Assembly: GCA_963715195.1 (NCBI GenBank)
Contig: CAVQRT010000008.1
Span: 45,268-109,267, forward strand
Source: Thermodesulfovibrionales bacterium
GTDB taxonomy: Bacteria; Nitrospirota; Thermodesulfovibrionia; Thermodesulfovibrionales; SM23-35
Reading direction: 5' to 3'
DNA: 64,000 nt
A program made the translations under genes and the position numbers. Positions 563 to 11,490 of this stretch are shown here, in pieces; the first letter of the stretch is position 1, and each line of letters opens with the position of its first letter. The notes under the pieces are model-generated. The model worked only from the letters and a program-made list of their open reading frames with translations, did no database searches and was not told the origin of the DNA.

Positions 563-610
563 TTGACTTTCCCCCATCACCCTGCTTAAATAGAAACGAA
601 TTCTATTTAA
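563..610 (+). promoter_or_regulatory. Sigma70 promoter overlapped by a putative Zur operator
   Basis: TTGACT at 563-568, then 17 bp to TTAAAT at 586; perfect inverted repeat TTAAATAGAA-acgaa-TTCTATTTAA at 586-610, directly before zur-znuACB. Confidence 0.75.
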
Positions 611-1065
611 TGCGGGCAGGTATGAACGAAGATCTTACGGCATCCCTCAGACGTCTGAACCTTAAGGTAACCCCCAAAAGAATTGCCATCATTGAAATAC
701 TCATGGGGGCGTCCGGGTATCTGAGCCCTGAGGAGATCTGGAGCAAAATGAAAAAACGGTTTAACCATATTGGCCTTCCGACGGTATACCGGAATCTGGA
801 AGAACTTGCGAAAGGGAATATTATATCCAAGATTACCCACCCGAACCGGCAGCTCTACTACTTTTTCTGCGGCAACAGCGAACATCATCACCATTTCGTG
901 TGCCTGTCGTGCCATACGGTGGATGATATCAGCTTCTGTGCGATCCGTGAGTTGCAAAAAGAGGTCAGGAAAAAACTGAATGCGCAGGTTGTCTCCCACA
1001 TTCTCCAGGTGAACGGGCTTTGCAAAGAGTGCCTGAAAAAAAGCCTTAAAGAGGATCCTGCATGA
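610..1065 (+). CDS. zur: Fur-family regulator, Zur-type (start may be 622)
   Basis: TVYRNL helix, HHHHFVCLSC and C-terminal CKEC motifs; first gene of the znu operon. Confidence 0.85.
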   Translation: MRAGMNEDLTASLRRLNLKVTPKRIAIIEILMGASGYLSPEEIWSKMKKRFNHIGLPTVYRNLEELAKGNIISKITHPNRQLYYFFCGNSEHHHHFVCLSCHTVDDISFCAIRELQKEVRKKLNAQVVSHILQVNGLCKECLKKSLKEDPA

Positions 1066-2039
1066 AGAAAGGAATATTATCGGTTTCCATACCGTTGCTG
1101 CTCATACTACTGATGTCCTTTTCGTGCAGCAAAAAAGAGGCGGTTCCGGTCGGGTATAAAACAATCAAAGTGGTAACAACACTGTTCCCGCTTTATGATT
1201 TTGCGAGAAATGTAGGTGGAGAGACGGTTCAGATCGAACTGCTGCTCCCTCCCGGCATTGAGCCACACAGTTTTGAACCCAAGCCTGCTGACATCCGTAA
1301 AATCAGTGAGGCAGATCTGTTATTTTATACCGGAAAGTTCATGGAGCCCTGGGTTGAGGATGTTCTGAAAGGAGTTGCCAGCAGAAATCTGCTCGTGGTC
1401 GATACGAGCACCGGTATTATGACCGCTGAAGGCCGTGATCTGCAGGGGCATCACCAAGGCGACAAGCACCCTGAAGGGAAACGCGGACATCGTCATGAAC
1501 CTGGGGTGAAAGACCCCCATATCTGGCTTGACTTTTCGAATGCCAAAATAATGGTGGGGAATATTCTCAATGGCTTTATTGCCAAAGATCCCTCCAACAG
1601 GCGTATTTACATGAAAAACGCAGAAGCATACACTATGGAATTATCGATGCTCGACAAACGATTTCGTGATGGACTTTCCTCATGCAGGAAAGATAAGATC
1701 ATTCACGGGGGACATTTCGCCTTCGGGTATCTCGCGAGGAGATATCACCTGCAGTATCTTTCGGCGTATAAGGGATTTTCACCCAATGCGGAACCTGCCC
1801 CCGGCGATATTATAGAATTGATCCAAAATCTCAGGAAGCATCGTCTGAACTATATCTTTTTTGAAGAATTGGTTTCGTCTAATGTTGCTGAGACTATCGG
1901 ACGTGAAACCGGCGCTCAACTTTTGATGCTTCACGGGGCTCATAATATTTCGAAGGATGATTGGGATCAGAACGTGACCTTTTTGTCTTTGATGGAGAAT
2001 AACCTGAAGAACCTTAGGATCGGTCTTGAATGTCAATGA
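1062..2039 (+). CDS. znuA: Zinc ABC transporter substrate-binding lipoprotein
   Basis: Lipoprotein signal, EPHSFEP, His-rich loop, DPHIWLD, HFAFGYLA. Confidence 0.9.
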   Translation: MKKGILSVSIPLLLILLMSFSCSKKEAVPVGYKTIKVVTTLFPLYDFARNVGGETVQIELLLPPGIEPHSFEPKPADIRKISEADLLFYTGKFMEPWVEDVLKGVASRNLLVVDTSTGIMTAEGRDLQGHHQGDKHPEGKRGHRHEPGVKDPHIWLDFSNAKIMVGNILNGFIAKDPSNRRIYMKNAEAYTMELSMLDKRFRDGLSSCRKDKIIHGGHFAFGYLARRYHLQYLSAYKGFSPNAEPAPGDIIELIQNLRKHRLNYIFFEELVSSNVAETIGRETGAQLLMLHGAHNISKDDWDQNVTFLSLMENNLKNLRIGLECQ

Positions 2040-2785
2040 CGATTGTTACCGTCAATAATCTCAGTTTCCGGTATAACTCCATGGACGTGTTGAGTAATAT
2101 TTCATTTGATGTCAATGCTGGTGACTTCATAGGATTGGTAGGTCCGAACGGATCCGGGAAGACGACGGCAATCAAGGTGATACTGGGGCTTTTGAAACAG
2201 ACGAACGGTGCTGTCTCACTGTTCGGAACGAATGTGAATAATTTCAGAGACTGGAGAAAGGTCGGATATCTTCCGCAGAAACTAACACATTTCAATCCTT
2301 ACTTTCCCGCAACGGTGAAGGAGATTGTCTCATCCGGGTTGTTCTCGTCAAAAAAATTCCCGAAAAGGATTCAGCGGTCTGATGAGGCTTTGATTGATGA
2401 AGCTCTGAACATGACGGATGTTGCAGATATCAGAGACGAGATGATCGGGGAACTTTCAGGAGGCCAGCAGCAACGGGTTCTCCTTGCCCGTGCGGTCATC
2501 AACCGACCGGAACTGCTGATTCTTGATGAACCGACGACGGCTCTGGATCCTGAAGCGCGGGAAAAGTTTTTTCAGACGATTATGGGACTGAACCAAACCA
2601 GGAACATGACAATCATTCTCATCACCCACGATATAGCAAGCATAGGCAAATATGCATTCAAACTCCTGTATCTCGACAAGCAGATTATCTTTTACGGAAG
2701 TTTCGAAGACTTCTGCGTGTCGGAAAAGATGACAAATTACTTCGGGGAATTCACACAACACCTCATATGCCACAGGCATGATTAA
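2030..2785 (+). CDS. znuC: Zinc ABC transporter ATPase
   Basis: GPNGSGKT, LSGGQQQR, ILDEP, ITHD. Confidence 0.9.
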   Translation: MSMTIVTVNNLSFRYNSMDVLSNISFDVNAGDFIGLVGPNGSGKTTAIKVILGLLKQTNGAVSLFGTNVNNFRDWRKVGYLPQKLTHFNPYFPATVKEIVSSGLFSSKKFPKRIQRSDEALIDEALNMTDVADIRDEMIGELSGGQQQRVLLARAVINRPELLILDEPTTALDPEAREKFFQTIMGLNQTRNMTIILITHDIASIGKYAFKLLYLDKQIIFYGSFEDFCVSEKMTNYFGEFTQHLICHRHD

Positions 2786-2787
2786 GT

Positions 2788-3609
2788 ATGGAGATCTTTA
2801 GTTTCTTCCAGTATGCATTCATGTGGAGAGCCGTCATAGCCGGTTCCTTCATTGCACTGGTCTGTGCCATTCTGGGGGTTCTCCTCGTATTGCGGCGGCT
2901 TTCGCTGATAGGGGACGGACTTGCGCATGTTACGTTCGGGAGTGTGGCGGTAGGGCTGCTCTTCAAGCAGCATCCCGTGTATCTTTCGATCCCTATCGTC
3001 ATGGCCAGTTCATTGGGTATCATGAAACTAACCGAGAAAGCGAGGCTATTCGGAGATGCGGCAATCGGCATTGTTTCCTCCCTGGGGATCGCAGGGGGAA
3101 TTATCATTGCCAGTGTTGCCGGCGGTTTCAACATCGATATCTTCAGTTTCCTCTTCGGCAACATTCTGGCGATCAGCCGGACGGAGGTTTTGACATCAAT
3201 TGCCCTTTCGATCGTCGTGCTTCTTGTTATCTTTTTTTTCTATCACGAGCATTTTTCGACTGCCTTTGACGAAGAGTTTGCAAAAATATCCGGAATTGAC
3301 ACGGGAAAGATCAATGCCATCCTTGTTCTTCTGACGGGTATAACGGTTGTCCTCGCCATGAAGATTGTTGGGATCATGCTCACCTCATCACTGCTGATCC
3401 TTCCACCGGTAACGGCACTGCAGATCGCACGGAGCTTCAAAAATACCATGGTCGTTTCAGCACTATGCAGCATCATATCGGTTATCACCGGTATCTCTGC
3501 ATCTTTTGTCCTGAACCTGCCGACGGGTGCGACAATTGTCATCGTGAATTTTCTGCTTTTTGTAACAGCATATACCTATAAGAGCGCTATCCAGAGCAAA
3601 TACCATTAA
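2788..3609 (+). CDS. znuB: Zinc ABC transporter permease (ABC-3 family)
   Basis: LIGDGLAHV motif, multi-TM, FLFGNIL. Confidence 0.9.
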   Translation: MEIFSFFQYAFMWRAVIAGSFIALVCAILGVLLVLRRLSLIGDGLAHVTFGSVAVGLLFKQHPVYLSIPIVMASSLGIMKLTEKARLFGDAAIGIVSSLGIAGGIIIASVAGGFNIDIFSFLFGNILAISRTEVLTSIALSIVVLLVIFFFYHEHFSTAFDEEFAKISGIDTGKINAILVLLTGITVVLAMKIVGIMLTSSLLILPPVTALQIARSFKNTMVVSALCSIISVITGISASFVLNLPTGATIVIVNFLLFVTAYTYKSAIQSKYH

Positions 3610-3731: not shown

Positions 3732-4559
3732 TTAAAAGATATCGTGGCGGGAATGGGGGATGAGGCCTTTCTTTTCAGCCTCTGCGAGGAGGAAACGAAT
3801 TGCCTGCTCACCCGCTGTCCCGATATCCAGTGAATATTCGTTTACATATAAATCAATGTGCTGACGGGCAACCGATTCGTCCATTTCCTGTGCGTATCTG
3901 CGGATGTATGCCCGGGGCTCTTCCGGATGCATTTGGGCATACCGGATGCTCTCGCGGATCTTTTCTTCTATGAGATATGACAGCTCCCTGTGCAGGTGCC
4001 GTCTCATGATGATGCCGCCAAGAGGAATCGGGTACCCGGTCGACTGCTCCCACCATTCACCCAAATCCAGAATCTTCTGAAGGCCGAATTTCCGATAGGT
4101 GAAACGGCTCTCATGAATGACAAGCCCTGCCTCGGTTCTTCCCTGTTGAACAGACTGCATAACCTGATGAAACGGCATAACAACGAAATTTCGAATCACG
4201 GGATCATAGAGACGGAGCAGCAAAAAGGCGGTTGTGAGTTCCCCCGGGATAGCGACGCGCTGGCGGCGTAGATCGCTTGAGGTAGATCCTTCCCGGGCTA
4301 CGACGAGCGGACCGCAGCCTTTCCCCAGTGCTCCTCCTGAACGGAGGAGTGCATAGTGATCCCGGAGGTGTGCGAAGGCATGAAATGATATTTTTGTGAT
4401 ATCCAATTCATTCCGGGTGGCCAGCCTGTTTAGGGTCTCGACGTCTTCCAGCCGTTCAGTAAACGATATGCCTTCCAAGGGGATCCTGTTGTGGACGAGA
4501 GCATAGAAGATGAATGTGTCGTTCGGACATGGGGAATAACCCAGGGACAGATTCTTCAC
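3732..4559 (-). CDS. mqnD: 1,4-dihydroxy-6-naphthoate synthase (futalosine pathway)
   Basis: GYSPCPNDTF, GALGKGCGP, VIHESRFTY, PIPLGG, HIDLYVN; GTG start at 4559 overlaps the mqnB stop. Confidence 0.92.
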   Translation of the reverse strand: MKNLSLGYSPCPNDTFIFYALVHNRIPLEGISFTERLEDVETLNRLATRNELDITKISFHAFAHLRDHYALLRSGGALGKGCGPLVVAREGSTSSDLRRQRVAIPGELTTAFLLLRLYDPVIRNFVVMPFHQVMQSVQQGRTEAGLVIHESRFTYRKFGLQKILDLGEWWEQSTGYPIPLGGIIMRRHLHRELSYLIEEKIRESIRYAQMHPEEPRAYIRRYAQEMDESVARQHIDLYVNEYSLDIGTAGEQAIRFLLAEAEKKGLIPHSRHDIF

Positions 4560-5275
4560 AGGGCTTTCCCCCAGTGCAAAACAATTTCTCTGGCCGCATT
4601 CTGACTGATACGGGCGGCAGAGGACAGGTCCCATTCTCTCTTGTTCCGCTTTTTCACCATATTACTGATGCCGCGAATTTCCAGAAAGGGAATGTCATAG
4701 AGAATGCATAATTGAGCTACCGATGCCCCCTCCATGTTTTCACAAATACCCCTGAAACGCTTTTCCATTTCGTCGGTCTTCTCCTTTGTACCCGTGACCT
4801 CAGAAACGGTAACAAATGCTCCTGTTTTCGCCCGGAACCCCTTTAGGATTTTTTTCGCTCTCTTCACAATTTTCTGATCTATCGGAAATCTGTTGTAAAA
4901 ACTTTGCTGATCCCTCCTGAGGAGCGGGAGTTTCAGATATTCCATTGATCTCCACCCTCGCGGAGTTATGACCCCCTCATCCCCGAAGATTTCCTCACTG
5001 GCAATTGCCAAATCACCAACGATCAGCCCCGATCTCGGATAAGCGCCGCCGCATCCAATCAGGAGAAGAAGATCAGGCCTCAAATGTTCCAGCAACAGAG
5101 TTGTGCCGTGAGCAGCATTGGTTTTTCCGACGCCTACTGGAAAAATGACGACCGGGACAGAACCAAGCCTGCCCTTGAGGGCCGAAGATTGACCGATGGC
5201 AACAGGACGGGGGCGGATTAACTGGCCGGAAAGCAGAGCTGTTTCAAATGGTGTGGCTGCGGTCACGATAATCAT
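4556..5275 (-). CDS. mqnB: Futalosine hydrolase
   Basis: PNP/MTAN-type motifs GVGKTNAA, GCGGAY, ENMEGA, EIRGISN; adjacent to mqnD. Confidence 0.88.
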   Translation of the reverse strand: MIIVTAATPFETALLSGQLIRPRPVAIGQSSALKGRLGSVPVVIFPVGVGKTNAAHGTTLLLEHLRPDLLLLIGCGGAYPRSGLIVGDLAIASEEIFGDEGVITPRGWRSMEYLKLPLLRRDQQSFYNRFPIDQKIVKRAKKILKGFRAKTGAFVTVSEVTGTKEKTDEMEKRFRGICENMEGASVAQLCILYDIPFLEIRGISNMVKKRNKREWDLSSAARISQNAAREIVLHWGKAL

Positions 5276-6183
5276 GTCCTGCTGCCTGAAGATATTGTTT
5301 TTCTTTTATTAAAGAGCAAGAGTATCTCTCCCAACACACATCCGATATGCCCGGCAACCACTGCACACTTTGCCCTGAGCATAAAAAAGACCGGCTTCTT
5401 CGCCTCTGACAATGTCTCAAAATTCCCCTGACCTTTGCTGATGATAATATCGGATGCCTTATACAGTTTCAGAAATTCTTTTGAGCATAACGATAATATT
5501 GTCCCCGGTGCATCAGACCCGGAAGATACAACAGCTGCTATGTTGTGAATCCCGCACTGATATGCATCTTCCAAGAGGGCATCGTTAATGATGGGTGATT
5601 CTTTGACTGCATACGTGATTTGTTTGCGCGCATCTTTTCGCCGAATCTCTTCGATCAGGATTCTGTCGAATACCGTCTCACCCGCGTTGTCTGCCAGATA
5701 GAGAATATTTTTTGCTTTTTCTACCATGTCTGTAAAATCATGATAATGAATAAAGGCATGGTTTCCTTTGCCAAAACTCTTTTGTTCGGTATGCAAAATC
5801 TTTTTCAGCTCTTCCTTTATATCCAGAGAGTTCCTTACCCCATAATCAATGATATTCCCGGCAATCGCCAGTTCAACGGCTTTGTGCAAGCGATCCTCTG
5901 ATGCTGATACCCTTCTGCAGAGTTCAGGATACATTCTGAGAGCAAGTCTGTTCCCGCGTATTTTCATTTGTTGATATGGATCGTTCTGCCCTGTTGCTTT
6001 TCTCACAATTCCGTATACAGTCCGGGCTATTTCAGGAGGTGTAGCTTTCAGTGATAACGCGGGCAGTGTTTTTGCGACTTCGTGTAAAACTTTCCTCTGA
6101 ATTGCCGGCCCTGCACCGGAAATCCGGGCGGTTTCAAGTGCTTGTCTGAAAAAACAGGGAATGCAGTCCAAATATGTTCTCAT
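5272..6183 (-). CDS. DUF89/ARMT1-like metal-dependent damage-control phosphatase
   Basis: CIPC N-terminus, AIAGNIIDYG, LADNAGE, INDA, SKGQGNFE. Confidence 0.88.
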   Translation of the reverse strand: MRTYLDCIPCFFRQALETARISGAGPAIQRKVLHEVAKTLPALSLKATPPEIARTVYGIVRKATGQNDPYQQMKIRGNRLALRMYPELCRRVSASEDRLHKAVELAIAGNIIDYGVRNSLDIKEELKKILHTEQKSFGKGNHAFIHYHDFTDMVEKAKNILYLADNAGETVFDRILIEEIRRKDARKQITYAVKESPIINDALLEDAYQCGIHNIAAVVSSGSDAPGTILSLCSKEFLKLYKASDIIISKGQGNFETLSEAKKPVFFMLRAKCAVVAGHIGCVLGEILLLFNKRKTISSGSRT

Positions 6184-6270
6184 ACATTAGAGGTATTTAT
6201 TTTTTGGATTATAAGATAGCATGAAAAGAAAGAAAATAGCTTTCTGGGGCAGGAACCTGGGGCGGAAACC

Positions 6271-6311
6271 TTGACATTGACTCTCAGCTTTTGTTATGTT
6301 TTATACAACAA
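6271..6311 (+). promoter_or_regulatory. Sigma70 promoter of the Ni/Co uptake operon
   Basis: TTGACA at 6271-6276 and TATGTT at 6295-6300; TTGTT-N11-AACAA dyad at 6291-6311. Confidence 0.6.
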
Positions 6312-6367
6312 GGCCACGAAGGCTGAAAAAAGACCAGGAGGTCTGATAGCTTTCGCGGCTTTTTTTT
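6312..6367 (+). ncRNA. Candidate cis-regulatory leader RNA / attenuator
   Basis: GGCCACGAAGGCT (6312-24) pairs with AGCTTTCGCGGCT (6348-60), enclosing the hairpin AGACC-agga-GGTCT, and is followed by a T8 run; lies just after the promoter. Confidence 0.55.
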
Positions 6368-6461
6368 GTTTGCCGCGGGGAAGGGGGTCCCTGTCCAAGA
6401 AATACCATATTACAAATTACTCATAAGTATCTGTCCATAAAGTGCGGTTTTTTGAAAAGTC

Positions 6462-6555
6462 TGTCATTCCCGCCCCCGTCTTCACGAGGGTAAACTCCGG
6501 CGGGAATCCATTGATTTCAATATATTATGGATCCCCGGGTCAAGCCGGAGGATGA
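6462..6555. repeat. GTCAT-tagged palindromic repeat dimer (copy A)
   Basis: TGTCATTCCCGC...GCGGGAATCCA (6462-6510) and TGGATCCCCGGGTCAAGCCGGAGGATGA (6528-6555). Confidence 0.8.
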
Positions 6556-6610
6556 GGAACAATGAGCTTCTTGGCGGACTTTAATAAGACAATCAAAGGG
6601 GGTTAATCTT

Positions 6611-7738
6611 ATGGTAACAGTGATGAAAAAAATGGTATCGATTTTCTTTGTCTGTTGTTGCATGATAATCGCAGTTCCGGCACTCGGCCTGTCTTATGAT
6701 ATCAATGAAAAGCTCTCAGTGGAAGGCTTGCTGACAGGAGTCTATCAATATGGTGATTTCGATGTTAAGGGGGTGGACGATGCCGACAGAGGGGCTGTCG
6801 TCTTTGATCTGGGAGTAAATTTCCATCCCACCGAGATCGATGAATTCCAAATAACGCTCAGCTATGCTGCCGGCAACGGGCTCAATAGTTTGAACCCTTT
6901 TTCACTTGCTCCATATGCAGATGACCTTGAGGACGATCTGAAAGACATCAACGGCAGAAACAGGGATTACCTGCTTGAAGCCTGGTACAGACATGCATTC
7001 AAGCTCTCAGAGAACATGGAATTGGGACTAACCGGTGGAATCATCGATGCCACCGCATATATTGACGATAACAACTTTGCGAACTGCGAATGCAGTCAGT
7101 TTATGAATGAAGCGTTCGTGAATCACAGAAACGTAAATCTTCCTTCATACGACCTTGGAGGAGTTATCGAGTTGAACGTTTCCAATTTCTCGATCCGGGC
7201 TCTCGCAATGAACACAAAATTTGAATCCGGTGCAGATGGATTTACAAACTACAATTATTACGCGCTGCAGGCGGGTTACAAACTTGACATTGCTTTGGGA
7301 GAAGGGAATTACAGGCTCTACGGGTTTACAACGAATAAGCGCTTTCAATGCCCTGAAGAAGGGGAAAAAGATAACCTGCTGGGCTTTGGAATATCGGCAG
7401 ACCAGAAACTGGGCGAGGTGGTTGGTGTCTTTGTGAGAACCAGCTGGCAGGACGACGAGGCGGTCATCGACCATGATAACATTTACTCCGGCGGAATAAA
7501 CATTAATGGCAATCTCTGGGGGAGAGAGAACGATGAGATAGGAATTGGGTATGCATATCTGAATGGTGCATGCGCCTCGGACATTGACCATTCGGTTGCT
7601 TTTGAGACGTATGCTAAATTCATGGTATCGACATTCAGTGACGTAACCTTGGATGTACAATACATAGACGATGAGATGAAAAATAATGATGACAGAGATG
7701 GGTTCATATACGGTATCAGAATGAATGCATATTTCTAA
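6611..7738 (+). CDS. Outer-membrane porin (OprB-like) heading the Ni/Co uptake operon
   Basis: Signal peptide, YLLEAWY, IDATAYIDDNNFAN...QFMN, C-terminal aromatic residue (NAYF). Confidence 0.75.
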   Translation: MVTVMKKMVSIFFVCCCMIIAVPALGLSYDINEKLSVEGLLTGVYQYGDFDVKGVDDADRGAVVFDLGVNFHPTEIDEFQITLSYAAGNGLNSLNPFSLAPYADDLEDDLKDINGRNRDYLLEAWYRHAFKLSENMELGLTGGIIDATAYIDDNNFANCECSQFMNEAFVNHRNVNLPSYDLGGVIELNVSNFSIRALAMNTKFESGADGFTNYNYYALQAGYKLDIALGEGNYRLYGFTTNKRFQCPEEGEKDNLLGFGISADQKLGEVVGVFVRTSWQDDEAVIDHDNIYSGGININGNLWGRENDEIGIGYAYLNGACASDIDHSVAFETYAKFMVSTFSDVTLDVQYIDDEMKNNDDRDGFIYGIRMNAYF

Positions 7739-7920
7739 ACGGTGTTATTCATGCATGATATATTTACCGGCCCGTTTGTGAACAATGTATTCTGAGGCCT
7801 ATTAATAATCATAAGGATGAAGCATAATTATAAAACTCTTTGGCAAAGAGGGGCGGGGGAGATTTTTGAGAATGATGTCTTACTTATGCACTCCTTAGTA
7901 AACAAAAGGAGGCAGGAATT

Positions 7921-8694
7921 ATGAAAAAAGGCATATTGACCATATTGGCTGGATCGATTTTGACGCTGTTGTTTTTTTCGGTGTCGTGGGCGCACTTTGG
8001 GATGATCATTCCCTCAGACGATATCGTTGGAAAAGAGGATAAGAAGGTGATTACCCTCACCATCAAATTTATCCATCCCTTTGAGGGCGATTACATGAAT
8101 ATGGAAATGCCGAAGGCATTCGGTGTGATGGTCGGCGGAGCAAAACAGGACCTCCTGAAGACCCTCCAGAAGAAGGATGTGAAAAAGTTTACCACATGGG
8201 GGACCTCTTATCAAATAAAGAGTCCGGGAGATTACGCATTTTATGTTGAACCAGCTCCATACTGGGAACCTGCGGAAGAAAGCTTTATTGTTCACTATAC
8301 GAAAGTGATCGTGAATGCCCTTGGCCTCGAAGAAGGTTGGGACGAGGAAGTGGGGCTGGAAACAGAGATCGTTCCGCTGACACGTCCCTACGGACTGTGG
8401 GCCGGAAACGTATTTCAGGGAGTAGTCAAAGTGGACGGCAAACCCGTTCCGCATGCAGAAGTGGAGGTTGAGTATTATAATGAAGGCGGCAGGATCAAAC
8501 CGCCTGCTGAATCATATATCACACAGGTGATTAAGGCTGATCAAAATGGTGTATTCACTTACGCAATGCCGAAAGCTGGCTGGTGGGGATTTGCCGCACT
8601 GAATACCGCCGACTACACATTGGCACACGAAGGGAAAGAGTATCCCGTTGAAATCGGCGCGGTCCTCTGGGTGAGAACAAGGGATATGAAGTAA
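7921..8694 (+). CDS. DUF4198 periplasmic Ni/Co uptake accessory protein
   Basis: Signal peptide ending [25 protein letters not shown]; next to cbiM. Confidence 0.8.
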
Positions 8695-8695
8695 T

Positions 8696-9301
8696 ATGCA
8701 TATTTCTGAAGGAGTATTATCGGCACCCGTGCTCATCGCGGGTGCCGTTCTGACTGCGGCAGGAGTGGCAGTCGGCCTGAAAAAAATGAGCTATGACCGG
8801 ATTCCAGAAGTAGCGGTTCTCTCGTCAGCCTTTTTTGTTGCCTCCCTTATTCATGTGCCGATCGGTCCTTCCGCAGTGCATCTGGTCCTGAACGGCCTGC
8901 TCGGTATTCTCCTGGGCTGGATGGCGTTCCCGTCAATATTAGTAGCTCTTGCGCTTCAGGCGCTCCTGTTTCAGTTCGGCGGAATTACCGTTCTCGGAGT
9001 CAACACCATGATTATGGCAGCACCGGCGGTCTTTGTGTATATCCTTTTCTCACCGCTTCTGAAAAAGCGGAACCTTTCCGTGATTGGCGTAGCCGGATTT
9101 TTCGCGGGTTCGACCGGTATAGCTGCCGGTGCCCTGCTGATTGCAGTCGCACTTGTTTCTACCGGCGAGAGTTTTGCGAATGTGGCAAAAGTTATTGTTA
9201 TTGCTCATGTGCCCATTATGATTATCGAGGGCATCATCACAGCCTTTTGCGTTCTCTTCTTAAAGAGAGTAAAACCAGAGATTCTGGAGGTTAGCAAATG
9301 A
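8696..9301 (+). CDS. cbiM: ECF Co/Ni transporter substrate component CbiM/NikM
   Basis: MHISEG N-terminus, IHVPIGPSAVHL, LQALLFQFGG. Confidence 0.92.
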   Translation: MHISEGVLSAPVLIAGAVLTAAGVAVGLKKMSYDRIPEVAVLSSAFFVASLIHVPIGPSAVHLVLNGLLGILLGWMAFPSILVALALQALLFQFGGITVLGVNTMIMAAPAVFVYILFSPLLKKRNLSVIGVAGFFAGSTGIAAGALLIAVALVSTGESFANVAKVIVIAHVPIMIIEGIITAFCVLFLKRVKPEILEVSK

Positions 9302-10002
9302 ATTATCAAAGTCTCTTGTCTAGTTTTTTTTCTCTTGTGAAAGGGAAAAGACTATGCTTTTATTCAGTGATTGGCTGTATGTTTTTTCTGTTCGGTCTCT
9401 TTCTGCAACCGGCTGACGCCCATAAAGTGAATATTTTTGCGTATGCGCAGGGCGGAAAAATTTATGCTGAAGGCTATTTTGTCGATGGTACAAAGTGTAA
9501 AAACTCTGTCATTGAGGTCGTTGACGGCAACACAGGTGAACAGTTGCTCGAGGGAAAAACCGACGACAACGGACAGATGTCGTTCCCGATTCCACGGGTG
9601 ACTGCATTAAAACTTATTTTGCACGCGGGGGCGGGACATCAGAATGATTATATGCTGACGGAAGAGGAAGTCAGGGATGCGATGCCGGCGGTTAAAAAAC
9701 AGGCGGAAAGGCGAAATGAACAGAAAAAGAAGGCAGTGCCTGAGCAGAAACAGACAAAGCGCGAGCAGGTAGCAAGGGTTGAGAATACGATATATCCACC
9801 AGTTTCGTCTGGGGAGCTTGAGACTGTGGTCGAGAAGGTTGTTGACAGTAAACTCCAGCCTGTCCTGAAGATACTTTTGGAGCTTCAAGAGAAAAGCGGA
9901 AAGCCAGGGGTAACCGAAATTCTGGGTGGTATCGGATATATAATAGGCATATTGGGTATTATTGCGTATTACAAGGGAAGGAGAACGAACAGCAAACTCT
10001 GA
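9298..10002 (+). CDS. CbiL/NikL-like accessory component
   Basis: AHKVNIFAY after a signal peptide, AGAGH, C-terminal TM with GGIGYIIG; between cbiM and cbiQ. Confidence 0.7.
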   Translation: MNYQSLLSSFFSLVKGKRLCFYSVIGCMFFLFGLFLQPADAHKVNIFAYAQGGKIYAEGYFVDGTKCKNSVIEVVDGNTGEQLLEGKTDDNGQMSFPIPRVTALKLILHAGAGHQNDYMLTEEEVRDAMPAVKKQAERRNEQKKKAVPEQKQTKREQVARVENTIYPPVSSGELETVVEKVVDSKLQPVLKILLELQEKSGKPGVTEILGGIGYIIGILGIIAYYKGRRTNSKL

Positions 10003-10082: not shown

Positions 10083-10838
10083 ATGCATCTTGAGGAATTC
10101 GCAGAAGGAACATCATTGTTTCACCGTCTTGACCCGCGGGTGAAATTCATTACATTCATACCGTATGTTCTTGTCATCGCTGTCATGGAGGGAATTGCCC
10201 ACCCGGCTCTTGCGCTGATTATTTCCTCATGCATGATTGTCATGACGCGGATTGATATGCGTAAATTGTTGAACAGGCTTGCTGCGGTGAATATTTTTAT
10301 CCTGTTGCTTTGGCTCTTTCTGCCATTCAGCTATCCCGGACATGAGGCGTTTCGCATAGGCCCCTTAACAGCAACGCGCGAGGGTCTGCTCTTTTCCCTT
10401 ACTATTGGGCTTAAGGCAAACGCAATTGTCCTTGCAACGATTGCCATGCTCGGAACATCAGAAGTATTCTCCCTTGCTCATGCGCTCGTTCACCTGAAAG
10501 TGCCGAATAAGCTCGTGCATCTCTTTTTTTTCTTTTACCGGTATATTAGTGTGCTGCATGATGAGTACACAACGTTAAAGCGGGCGATACATATACGGGC
10601 ATTCAGACCGGGGACAAACATGCATACCTATAAAACATATGCGTATCTTGTGGGAATGCTTATTGTGAGGAGTTATGATCATTCTCAGAGGATCTATCAG
10701 GCGATGCTCTGCAGGGGCTTCACCGGACGCTTCCCGATCATCATGCATTTTCATATGCACATGCGGGACTACCTCTTCAGCATCTGCATGTTCTGCATAA
10801 CAATTGGTATGATAGTGCTTTCATACAACGCGAAATAA
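10083..10838 (+). CDS. cbiQ: ECF transporter T component
   Basis: LDPRVK, YRYI and C-terminal CRGF motifs. Confidence 0.9.
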   Translation: MHLEEFAEGTSLFHRLDPRVKFITFIPYVLVIAVMEGIAHPALALIISSCMIVMTRIDMRKLLNRLAAVNIFILLLWLFLPFSYPGHEAFRIGPLTATREGLLFSLTIGLKANAIVLATIAMLGTSEVFSLAHALVHLKVPNKLVHLFFFFYRYISVLHDEYTTLKRAIHIRAFRPGTNMHTYKTYAYLVGMLIVRSYDHSQRIYQAMLCRGFTGRFPIIMHFHMHMRDYLFSICMFCITIGMIVLSYNAK

Positions 10839-10842
10839 CTGT

Positions 10843-11490
10843 ATGCTGAATATTCAAGATCTTCATTTCGGATATCAGAACGGGAAAGAGGTTTTCCAGG
10901 GGCTCAATTTTACCCTGAACAAGAAGGAGCGGATAGGCCTCGTCGGCCCGAATGGCGCTGGAAAGACCACATTGTTTCATCTGATTATGGGGTTGCAAAG
11001 GCCCTCATCAGGAAGCATAGAAATATTTGATAAGATCAGGGAAACTGAGGGTGATTTTGAGGAAGTAAGAAAGCGCATCGGGTTCCTGTTCCAGGAATCG
11101 GATGACCAGCTTTTCTGTCCAACGGTTGAGGAGGATATCGCATTCGGTCCGCTCAATCTCGGGAAATCGCATGATGAAGCCCGTCTGATCGTGAAAGAAA
11201 CCTGTGAGAAATTAGGATTAAGCGGCTATGAGAAAAGAATAACCCACCGCCTCTCGGGAGGAGAAAAAAGACTCGTTGCTCTCGCAACAGTAGTAGCAAT
11301 GCATCCTGAGTGCTATCTCCTCGACGAACCGACAGCCGGACTTGATGATGCAACCACGAAGAGGTTTCTGGACTATCTCGCTCATTATACGGACACCTAT
11401 ATCATTATTACGCACAACCATTCCTTGCTTAAAGATACTGCTGATAAAGTCTATGCGTTGAATAACGGCTCATTGAGGCTTCTGGACTGA
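10843..11490 (+). CDS. cbiO: ECF transporter ATPase
   Basis: GPNGAGKT, DQLFCPTVEEDIAFGP, LSGGEKR. Confidence 0.9.
   Translation: MLNIQDLHFGYQNGKEVFQGLNFTLNKKERIGLVGPNGAGKTTLFHLIMGLQRPSSGSIEIFDKIRETEGDFEEVRKRIGFLFQESDDQLFCPTVEEDIAFGPLNLGKSHDEARLIVKETCEKLGLSGYEKRITHRLSGGEKRLVALATVVAMHPECYLLDEPTAGLDDATTKRFLDYLAHYTDTYIIITHNHSLLKDTADKVYALNNGSLRLLD

Follow-up and report, generated by a model that had tools for sequence, protein, structure and literature searches.

A Conserved Dual-Hairpin Leader of Nickel-Uptake Operons and Its Predicted Reader, DUF3842

Introduction

Many nickel-dependent anaerobes lack the repressor NikR, and the control of nickel uptake in these organisms is left unexplained in the literature searched. 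The question is raised by a stretch of 64,000 nucleotides (the window) from a Thermodesulfovibrionales bacterium (genome G000), in which a metal-uptake operon is preceded by a structured leader that ends in a terminator. The original prediction, made from the sequence alone, was that transcription of this Ni/Co uptake operon is conditionally terminated by an uncharacterised RNA element or an antiterminator protein, or that the leader yields a short sRNA. The present analysis is focused on the structure, distribution, and possible protein partner of this leader. It is a real, conserved cis-regulatory RNA of nickel-uptake operons that is absent from Rfam, and on the strength of comparative sequence analysis it is probably a protein-controlled transcription attenuator of nickel uptake, with DUF3842 as the predicted reader standing in for NikR.

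Structure of the Leader

The gene upstream of the leader (5272-6183) is encoded on the minus strand and the porin gene starts with an ATG at 6611, 244 nt past the U tract, as anticipated by the original prediction (no co-oriented gene upstream, porin about 245 nt on). The predicted sigma70-type promoter (TTGACA...TATGTT) was located at 6271-6300 on the plus strand, with the -35 hexamer TTGACA at 6271-6276, an 18-nt spacer, and an extended -10 element, TG-TATGTT, ending at 6300, from which a start site near 6306-6308 is predicted. It is the best of eight promoter-like sites within 5000-7500 and matches 10 of 12 consensus positions, although one such site on its own is weak evidence because shuffled sequence yields 4.1 sites. 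Among the relatives, a promoter-like site lies at most 25 nt upstream of 33 of the 39 aligned Nitrospirota copies, compared with 5.6 ± 2.1 after shuffling.

The intrinsic terminator (6310-6367, plus strand) consists of a stem formed by 6310-6325 and 6347-6362, interrupted by the expected A-C mismatch (A6316-C6356), and a U8 tract at 6360-6367. A G+C-rich stem followed by a U tract is the typical shape of an intrinsic terminator, and the stem is weakened by the mismatch and by G-U pairs. The leader terminator was not called by a simple terminator scanner because the loop limit of the scanner is 8 nt. The single-sequence fold of the leader is modest (z = -2.33; 4 of 200 shuffles equally good), and the reality of the element is settled by its conservation. 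No ATG, GTG, or TTG is found in 6301-6359, and hence no short open reading frame of the kind expected in a leader-peptide attenuator precedes the terminator.

Two small hairpins are embedded in this structure. Hairpin H1 (GGCC-ACGAA-GGCU; 6312-6324, plus strand), a self-hairpin of the terminator 5′ arm that the original prediction did not include, is near-invariant in alignment A3 and is a predicted protein-binding site; since H1 is itself the 5′ arm, the terminator is excluded when H1 folds. Hairpin H2 (AGACC-AGGA-GGUCU; 6331-6344, plus strand), which had been recognized before, lies inside the terminator loop and is the predicted second binding site. The two loops are alike, following C-A(N)GNA-G with 5 nt (ACGAA) in H1 and 4 nt (AGGA) in H2. 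Furthermore, an alternative helix, P4 (6351-6380, plus strand), likewise not part of the original prediction, is seen mainly in the family of the host; in it, the 3′ arm at 6351-6359 can pair with 6372-6380. The terminator fold has a calculated energy of -27.3 kcal/mol versus -11.1 kcal/mol for H1 and H2 together; the combination of H1, H2, and P4 reaches -24.4 kcal/mol, and the best fold of the longer RNA is -29.0 kcal/mol.

Outside the switch, about 100 nt of the spacer between the attenuator and the porin gene (6460-6560) is a dispersed REP-like inverted repeat, also newly noted, with 13 further copies in the genome (nhmmer, E<0.01). Three sequencing runs were located, as assembled contigs, and one RNA run contains 8% of the words; they yielded no information on transcript start, end, or level. 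No second copy of the element was found in the host genome, the weak model matches being on the reverse strand or belonging to a different leader family. A second leader-terminator family is present in this genome at C28:5939-5999(-), C7:351346-351406(-), C31:44921-44981(-), and C7:135514-135574(+), with further loci in L248, L250, and L254, and it also occurs in NikR-bearing relatives. It consists of a GCCACAAAGAC stem and a U tract, and the genes that follow, assigned by eye, are cspA-like, encode a DEAD-box helicase, or have 120-150 aa and no known identity; pairing of the 5′ arm with a AAGUUUUUG located upstream is possible at -7.5 to -9.3 kcal/mol, and this family is a candidate cold-shock attenuator.

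The Operon Downstream of the Leader

The first gene of the operon encodes an OprB-family porin (6611-7738; PF04966, E 2e-10), followed on the same plus strand by a DUF4198 protein (7921-8694; PF10670), termed NikK-like from its operon position, a NikM/CbiM S component (8696-9301; PF01891, NF004905 above cut-off), a NikL-family ECF subunit (9298-10002; NF058648 above cut-off), a NikQ/CbiQ T component (10083-10838; PF02361, TIGR02454), and a NikO/CbiO ATPase (10843-11490; PF00005, with CbiO-type models below their cut-offs). In the accessible part of their study, from which the operon type is also taken, Rodionov et al. (PMC545781) assigned the nikKMLQO arrangement to nickel and to NikR control. 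The operon behind the leader, first described as one for Ni/Co uptake, is of the nickel (nikKMLQO) type. Two [NiFe]-hydrogenase-family genes are present in the host genome. Elsewhere in the window, 3 kb from the nickel operon, a Fur-family regulator gene is followed by a zinc-type uptake operon encoding ZnuA, an ATPase, and an ABC-3 protein (610-3609).

Distribution and Covariation

In a blastn search with the leader, matches were obtained in 50 of the 201 genomes of the order, the weakest of which may be chance, and in the loci opened the element was flanked by a promoter-like site directly upstream and by porin or cbiM genes downstream. An exact pattern detected the motif in 66 of the 201 genomes, with no match for the reversed control. 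Beyond the order, a first, over-specific pattern gave no match in GTDB, and a degenerate pattern returned at least 122 loci. On visual inspection, made ahead of the protein searches, 11 of them were classed as spurious because they lay within genes or lacked metal genes; Nitrospirota, Desulfobacterota, NC10, Clostridia, Spirochaetes, and Chloroflexi are represented among the matches listed. The genes that follow the copies are co-oriented metal-uptake genes, and their start codon is often within 20-60 nt. From 145 candidates, 64 proteins encoded downstream were selected, and 46 of these gave a Pfam match, mostly to nickel or metal uptake, including CbiM, DUF4198, family-5 binding proteins, TonB receptors, FecCD, FmdE, and CODH/prismane proteins; some targets, such as methyltransferases and ECF S components, have no obvious nickel link. 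Unannotated porins, TonB receptors, methyltransferases, and ECF components that follow the motif thereby become candidates for a role in nickel use.

Several recurrent arrangements were observed. In L038, L068, L170, G053, and G108 the motif is repeated, either twice within a single operon region or as many as four times in a genome, indicating a multi-operon regulon; the host genome has a single copy. A SAM-dependent methyltransferase gene is often the first gene after the motif, beside TonB receptors (L078, L081, L087, L094, L025). A histidine-rich protein of 65-75 aa (HWxEHNxEH) recurs in motif-led operons (L025:3051-3275, L063:2567-2791, L120); the L063 copy has no Pfam or NCBIfam match, and the protein is a candidate nickel-binding protein.

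Compensatory changes in the relatives, proposed as a check of the element, were observed. One variable base of the H1 loop was not constrained by the search pattern, and in 141 of 147 distinct copies its partner in the terminator pairs with it, with five pair types (C-G 79, U-A 39, U-G 8, A-U 8, and G-C 6). The H1 sequence and most of the remaining terminator pairing, by contrast, were fixed by the pattern and are of little value as proof. In Nitrospirota, the stem of H2 shows covariation while its AGNA loop is retained, with 21 two-sided cells compared with 4.4 after shuffling and at most five in slid controls; two-sided changes are found at three of its four pairs. Across phyla, a hairpin with an R(N)GNA loop occurs in only 69 of 147 spacers (8.6 when shuffled), and H2 is therefore loose outside Nitrospirota. 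An extra upstream C-A(N)GAA-G hairpin is found in 26 of 147 copies, compared with 0.25 in shuffled sequence. Other layouts are seen in L234, L236, L240, L242, and L246; in some of them one upstream hairpin precedes a bare terminator, and in L240, L242, and L246 the terminator arm is formed by the second hairpin and not the first. The constant unit is therefore a repeated small loop, one copy of which lies on the terminator arm.

The P4 pairing between the 3′ arm and a downstream G+C-rich stretch, which often abuts the ribosome-binding site, is possible in 25 of the 39 aligned copies; 95.6% of cells are paired in these 25, which were picked for having P4. At the key position, the one position with a two-sided change on which the support for P4 is based, the pairs are C-G 16, U-G 4, G-C 3, and A-U 1, with one unpaired (n=25). 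In 21 of these 25 copies that base forms a mismatch with the A of H1, whereas an A-U pair is kept in the 14 copies without P4; in those with P4, selection has favored the downstream helix over a perfect terminator.

A Candidate Protein Partner

Four protein families were profiled as partner candidates. Among the 201 genomes of the order, the motif is present in 66, DUF3842 in 131, CooT in 189, and NikR in 50; relatives in these counts are not independent because of kinship. DUF3842 is found in 64 of the 66 motif genomes versus 67 of the 135 others. By contrast, NikR is found in one motif genome (G184, 6% contaminated) and in two of the 131 DUF3842 genomes. The association is retained within families: DUF3842 occurs in two of 19 members of family f6 and in one of 20 members of f12, and the motif is confined to these same genomes. 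The NikR-bearing genomes G079, G109, and G091 belong to DUF3842-rich families, yet lack both DUF3842 and the motif. In G026 and G040, the orthologous operon begins with nikR and lacks the motif. NikR (PF08753) was not found in the host genome (97.8% complete; control found in 5 of 14) or in 21 members of its family, and no NikR box was found at 5901-7950 with one mismatch allowed per half-site; the box is present in the NikR relative L026 and absent in L028.

The same exclusion was obtained with a covariance model, built from DUF3842 genomes and read at a 34-bit line drawn after the scores were known: at least 34 bits were reached in one of the 50 NikR genomes versus 21 of the first 30 pattern-negative DUF3842 genomes. 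The hits at or above this line were inspected, and three weaker true hits were recognized in DUF3842 genomes; 26 NikR genomes have weaker model hits, and the five inspected were all other terminators. Furthermore, among 50 non-Nitrospirota genomes hand-picked from the at least 122 GTDB loci, DUF3842 is present in 36 of the 39 with a genuine-looking motif versus one of the 11 judged spurious beforehand. In L090, L103, L131, L225, and L096, the end of the DUF3842 gene is 20-215 nt upstream of the motif, and in L065, L123, and L252 the gene lies downstream of it. By eye, genes resembling larB/C/E (lactate-racemase cofactor) and cobalamin genes also adjoin DUF3842 or the motif in the L218/L200 region, L090, and L096.

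The DUF3842 protein comprises 139 residues and is predicted to form a small Rossmann-like domain (pLDDT 95.9). A fold search returned generic Rossmann-like matches, the best being lactate dehydrogenase (Z 9.8), with no known RNA-binding relative among the top matches and no known antiterminator fold, which does not speak against such a role; the sequence gave nothing under E 0.2 against the PDB, and an Atlas search returned only DUF3842 clusters. A DGQGGGIG loop, two basic positions, and three acidic positions are kept, position 46 and position 100 carry K or R in 95-97% of the 87 rows, and neither His nor Cys is invariant at any position.

The same attenuator may be read by another factor, either CooT itself or a further protein, with DUF3842 co-inherited or making the signal; this explanation is unlikely, albeit the most serious competitor. 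CooT is a small β-sheet nickel-binding dimer, named a predicted RNA-binding protein by JGI, and its gene adjoins that of DUF3842 in the host (C7:75279-75888) and in all 12 Nitrospirota loci inspected. The Rossmann loop of DUF3842 (GQGGGIG) is enzyme-like, and DUF3842 was not found even by profile search in five motif genomes, including G001, which has three motif copies and is 100% complete by markers (210 contigs). However, CooT was not found in seven of 10 motif- and DUF3842-bearing genomes of other phyla, leaving DUF3842 as the constant partner, and CooT is present in most NikR genomes that lack the motif. Moreover, the model of CooT (62 residues) fits only CooT structures well, with Hfq at Z 3.1. 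A complex prediction for DUF3842 and CooT scored 0.00 and counts neither way.

Proposed Mechanism and Alternative Explanations

The dual-hairpin layout suggests a protein-bound antiterminator rather than a riboswitch. With DUF3842 as the predicted reader, the terminator (-27 kcal/mol) would win in the absence of bound protein, and an RNA of about 60 nt would be released. Under nickel scarcity, H1 and H2 would be bound by an oligomer of DUF3842 as they emerge, H1 would be kept folded, and the polymerase would read through. The freed 3′ arm could then pair with 6372-6380 to form P4, and in this open form (-24.4 kcal/mol) H1 would stay available; as P4 forms later, after read-through, it is unable to block termination. 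CooT, each dimer of which takes up one nickel (Kd, 9 nM) according to the accessible text of PMC6006190, might serve as the nickel sensor, with nickel-bound CooT perhaps switching DUF3842 off; lineages without CooT would need another input to DUF3842. If correct, the switch has three small parts: a 60-nt RNA, the 139-residue DUF3842, to which no function is assigned, and the 62-residue nickel-binding CooT dimer, whose function is described as unclear in a review.

A wider reading, put forward tentatively on the same comparative grounds, is that DUF3842 may represent a new Rossmann-like class of RNA-binding antiterminators with CooT as its sensor, that ANGAA-loop hairpins may define a nickel-starvation regulon across Nitrospirota, Desulfobacterota, NC10, Clostridia, Spirochaetes, and Chloroflexi as a post-initiation alternative to NikR, and that the widespread role of CooT could be signaling rather than CO-dehydrogenase maturation.

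A small, protein-free metal or cofactor riboswitch with its aptamer embedded in the terminator is very unlikely. Its purine-rich loops are invariant, and terminator-embedded aptamers are reported to exist. However, the conserved part is limited to two hairpins of 3-5 bp, variable in number, order, and linker and without a junction, and a ligand that stabilized H1 directly would turn uptake on when metal is plentiful. A metal riboswitch is further disfavored because about 7-14 nt precede the terminator, because two tiny repeated loops are what is conserved, and because the element tracks, and tightly depends on, one protein family, DUF3842.

Equally improbable is that the leader is a leaky terminator or pause without regulation, which would do no more than lower expression of the uptake genes. 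The stem is indeed weakened, and the host genome contains a further family of leader terminators that begins with a similar GCCAC; nevertheless, the kept loop sequence, its repetition in separate hairpins (26/147 vs. 0.25), and the mutual exclusion with NikR would be unexplained. The weakest alternative, that the released RNA of about 60 nt is itself the product, an sRNA or a sponge titrating a binding protein, has in its favor a promoter and terminator of its own and two potential binding loops, but H1 is destroyed in the terminated fold and the element keeps to the 5′ flank of genes for metal uptake, which makes this idea quite improbable.

The consensus of CsrA/RsmA sites is ANGGA. Such sites were rejected because the H1 loop is ANGAA and the third base of H2 varies; a K-turn was rejected by eye. 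Overall, the analysis supports an element outside Rfam that conditionally terminates transcription: it is conserved and covaries, neither a NikR gene nor a NikR box was found, and a cobalamin riboswitch is absent here; of the options first offered, the antiterminator protein is favored, and the metal riboswitch and the sRNA are unlikely.

Comparison With Known Systems

The Rfam search around the leader gave eight sub-threshold hits, none over the element. As expected from the original prediction, the cobalamin riboswitch (RF00174) has no hit at the leader, and two hits lie elsewhere in the host genome. The NiCo/czcD model has no match at E<=10 over 4500-8000, and the pan and PyrR models have none at the leader and no gathering-level match in 12 homologous loci. 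The element is undescribed in the literature searched, although the supplements of motif surveys (PMC5737381, PMC11109978), outside that search, may list the motif. The words “nickel” and “cobalt” are absent from the main texts of PMC11109978, PMC8632094, PMC6429828, PMC2965389, PMC2864571, PMC5737381, and bioRxiv 10.64898/2026.10.21.760802. In the accessible parts of the sources, “DUF3842” appears in one unrelated paper, and a review of metal sensing covers DNA-binding sensors and riboswitches, the string “antiterminat” not occurring there.

The PyrR attenuator contains a CC-loop-GG hairpin of similar appearance, and PyrR binding promotes termination. The pan RNA motif, as described in the accessible part of PMC2864571, likewise consists of simple tandem hairpins proposed as protein sites; however, it has bulged A residues within the stem and precedes pantothenate genes, neither of which applies here. 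The NiCo/czcD riboswitch likewise acts at the RNA level on a Ni/Co transporter operon of anaerobes, but it is a four-way junction that binds the metal itself and controls efflux (accessible part of PMC11672702), whereas the present leader precedes uptake genes and folds without a junction. The NikR regulon of nikKMLQO and nikMNQO operons shares the operon type and presumably the logic, being off when nickel is ample; NikR, however, is a DNA-binding repressor with a GTGTTAC-N13/14-GTAACAC box (PMC545781, in the part available), and neither the gene nor the box was found here.

The closest likeness is to the dual-hexaloop leaders bound by ANTAR proteins such as EutV (accessible part of PMC8934654), in which two tandem, similarly looped hairpins are present, one overlapping the stem of an intrinsic terminator, and in which the stem sequence is free and the loop bases are kept; in both, protein binding would favor read-through. 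There are also differences from the leaders in that text: ANTAR hexaloops carry A1 and G4, whereas the loops here are a 5-nt ANGAA and a 4-5-nt AG(N)A and thus not hexaloops, and here it is the first hairpin that overlaps the terminator, with the second enclosed in the terminator loop, unlike in ANTAR leaders. The ANTAR protein has a helical domain (PMC8934654, likewise in part), whereas the linked protein here is the Rossmann-like DUF3842 and the targets are metal-uptake genes. A search for ANTAR (PF03861) gave no match in the host genome, with none in the control genomes as well. By analogy, these comparisons suggest a form of attenuation akin to ANTAR-type antitermination, with different loops and a different linked protein.
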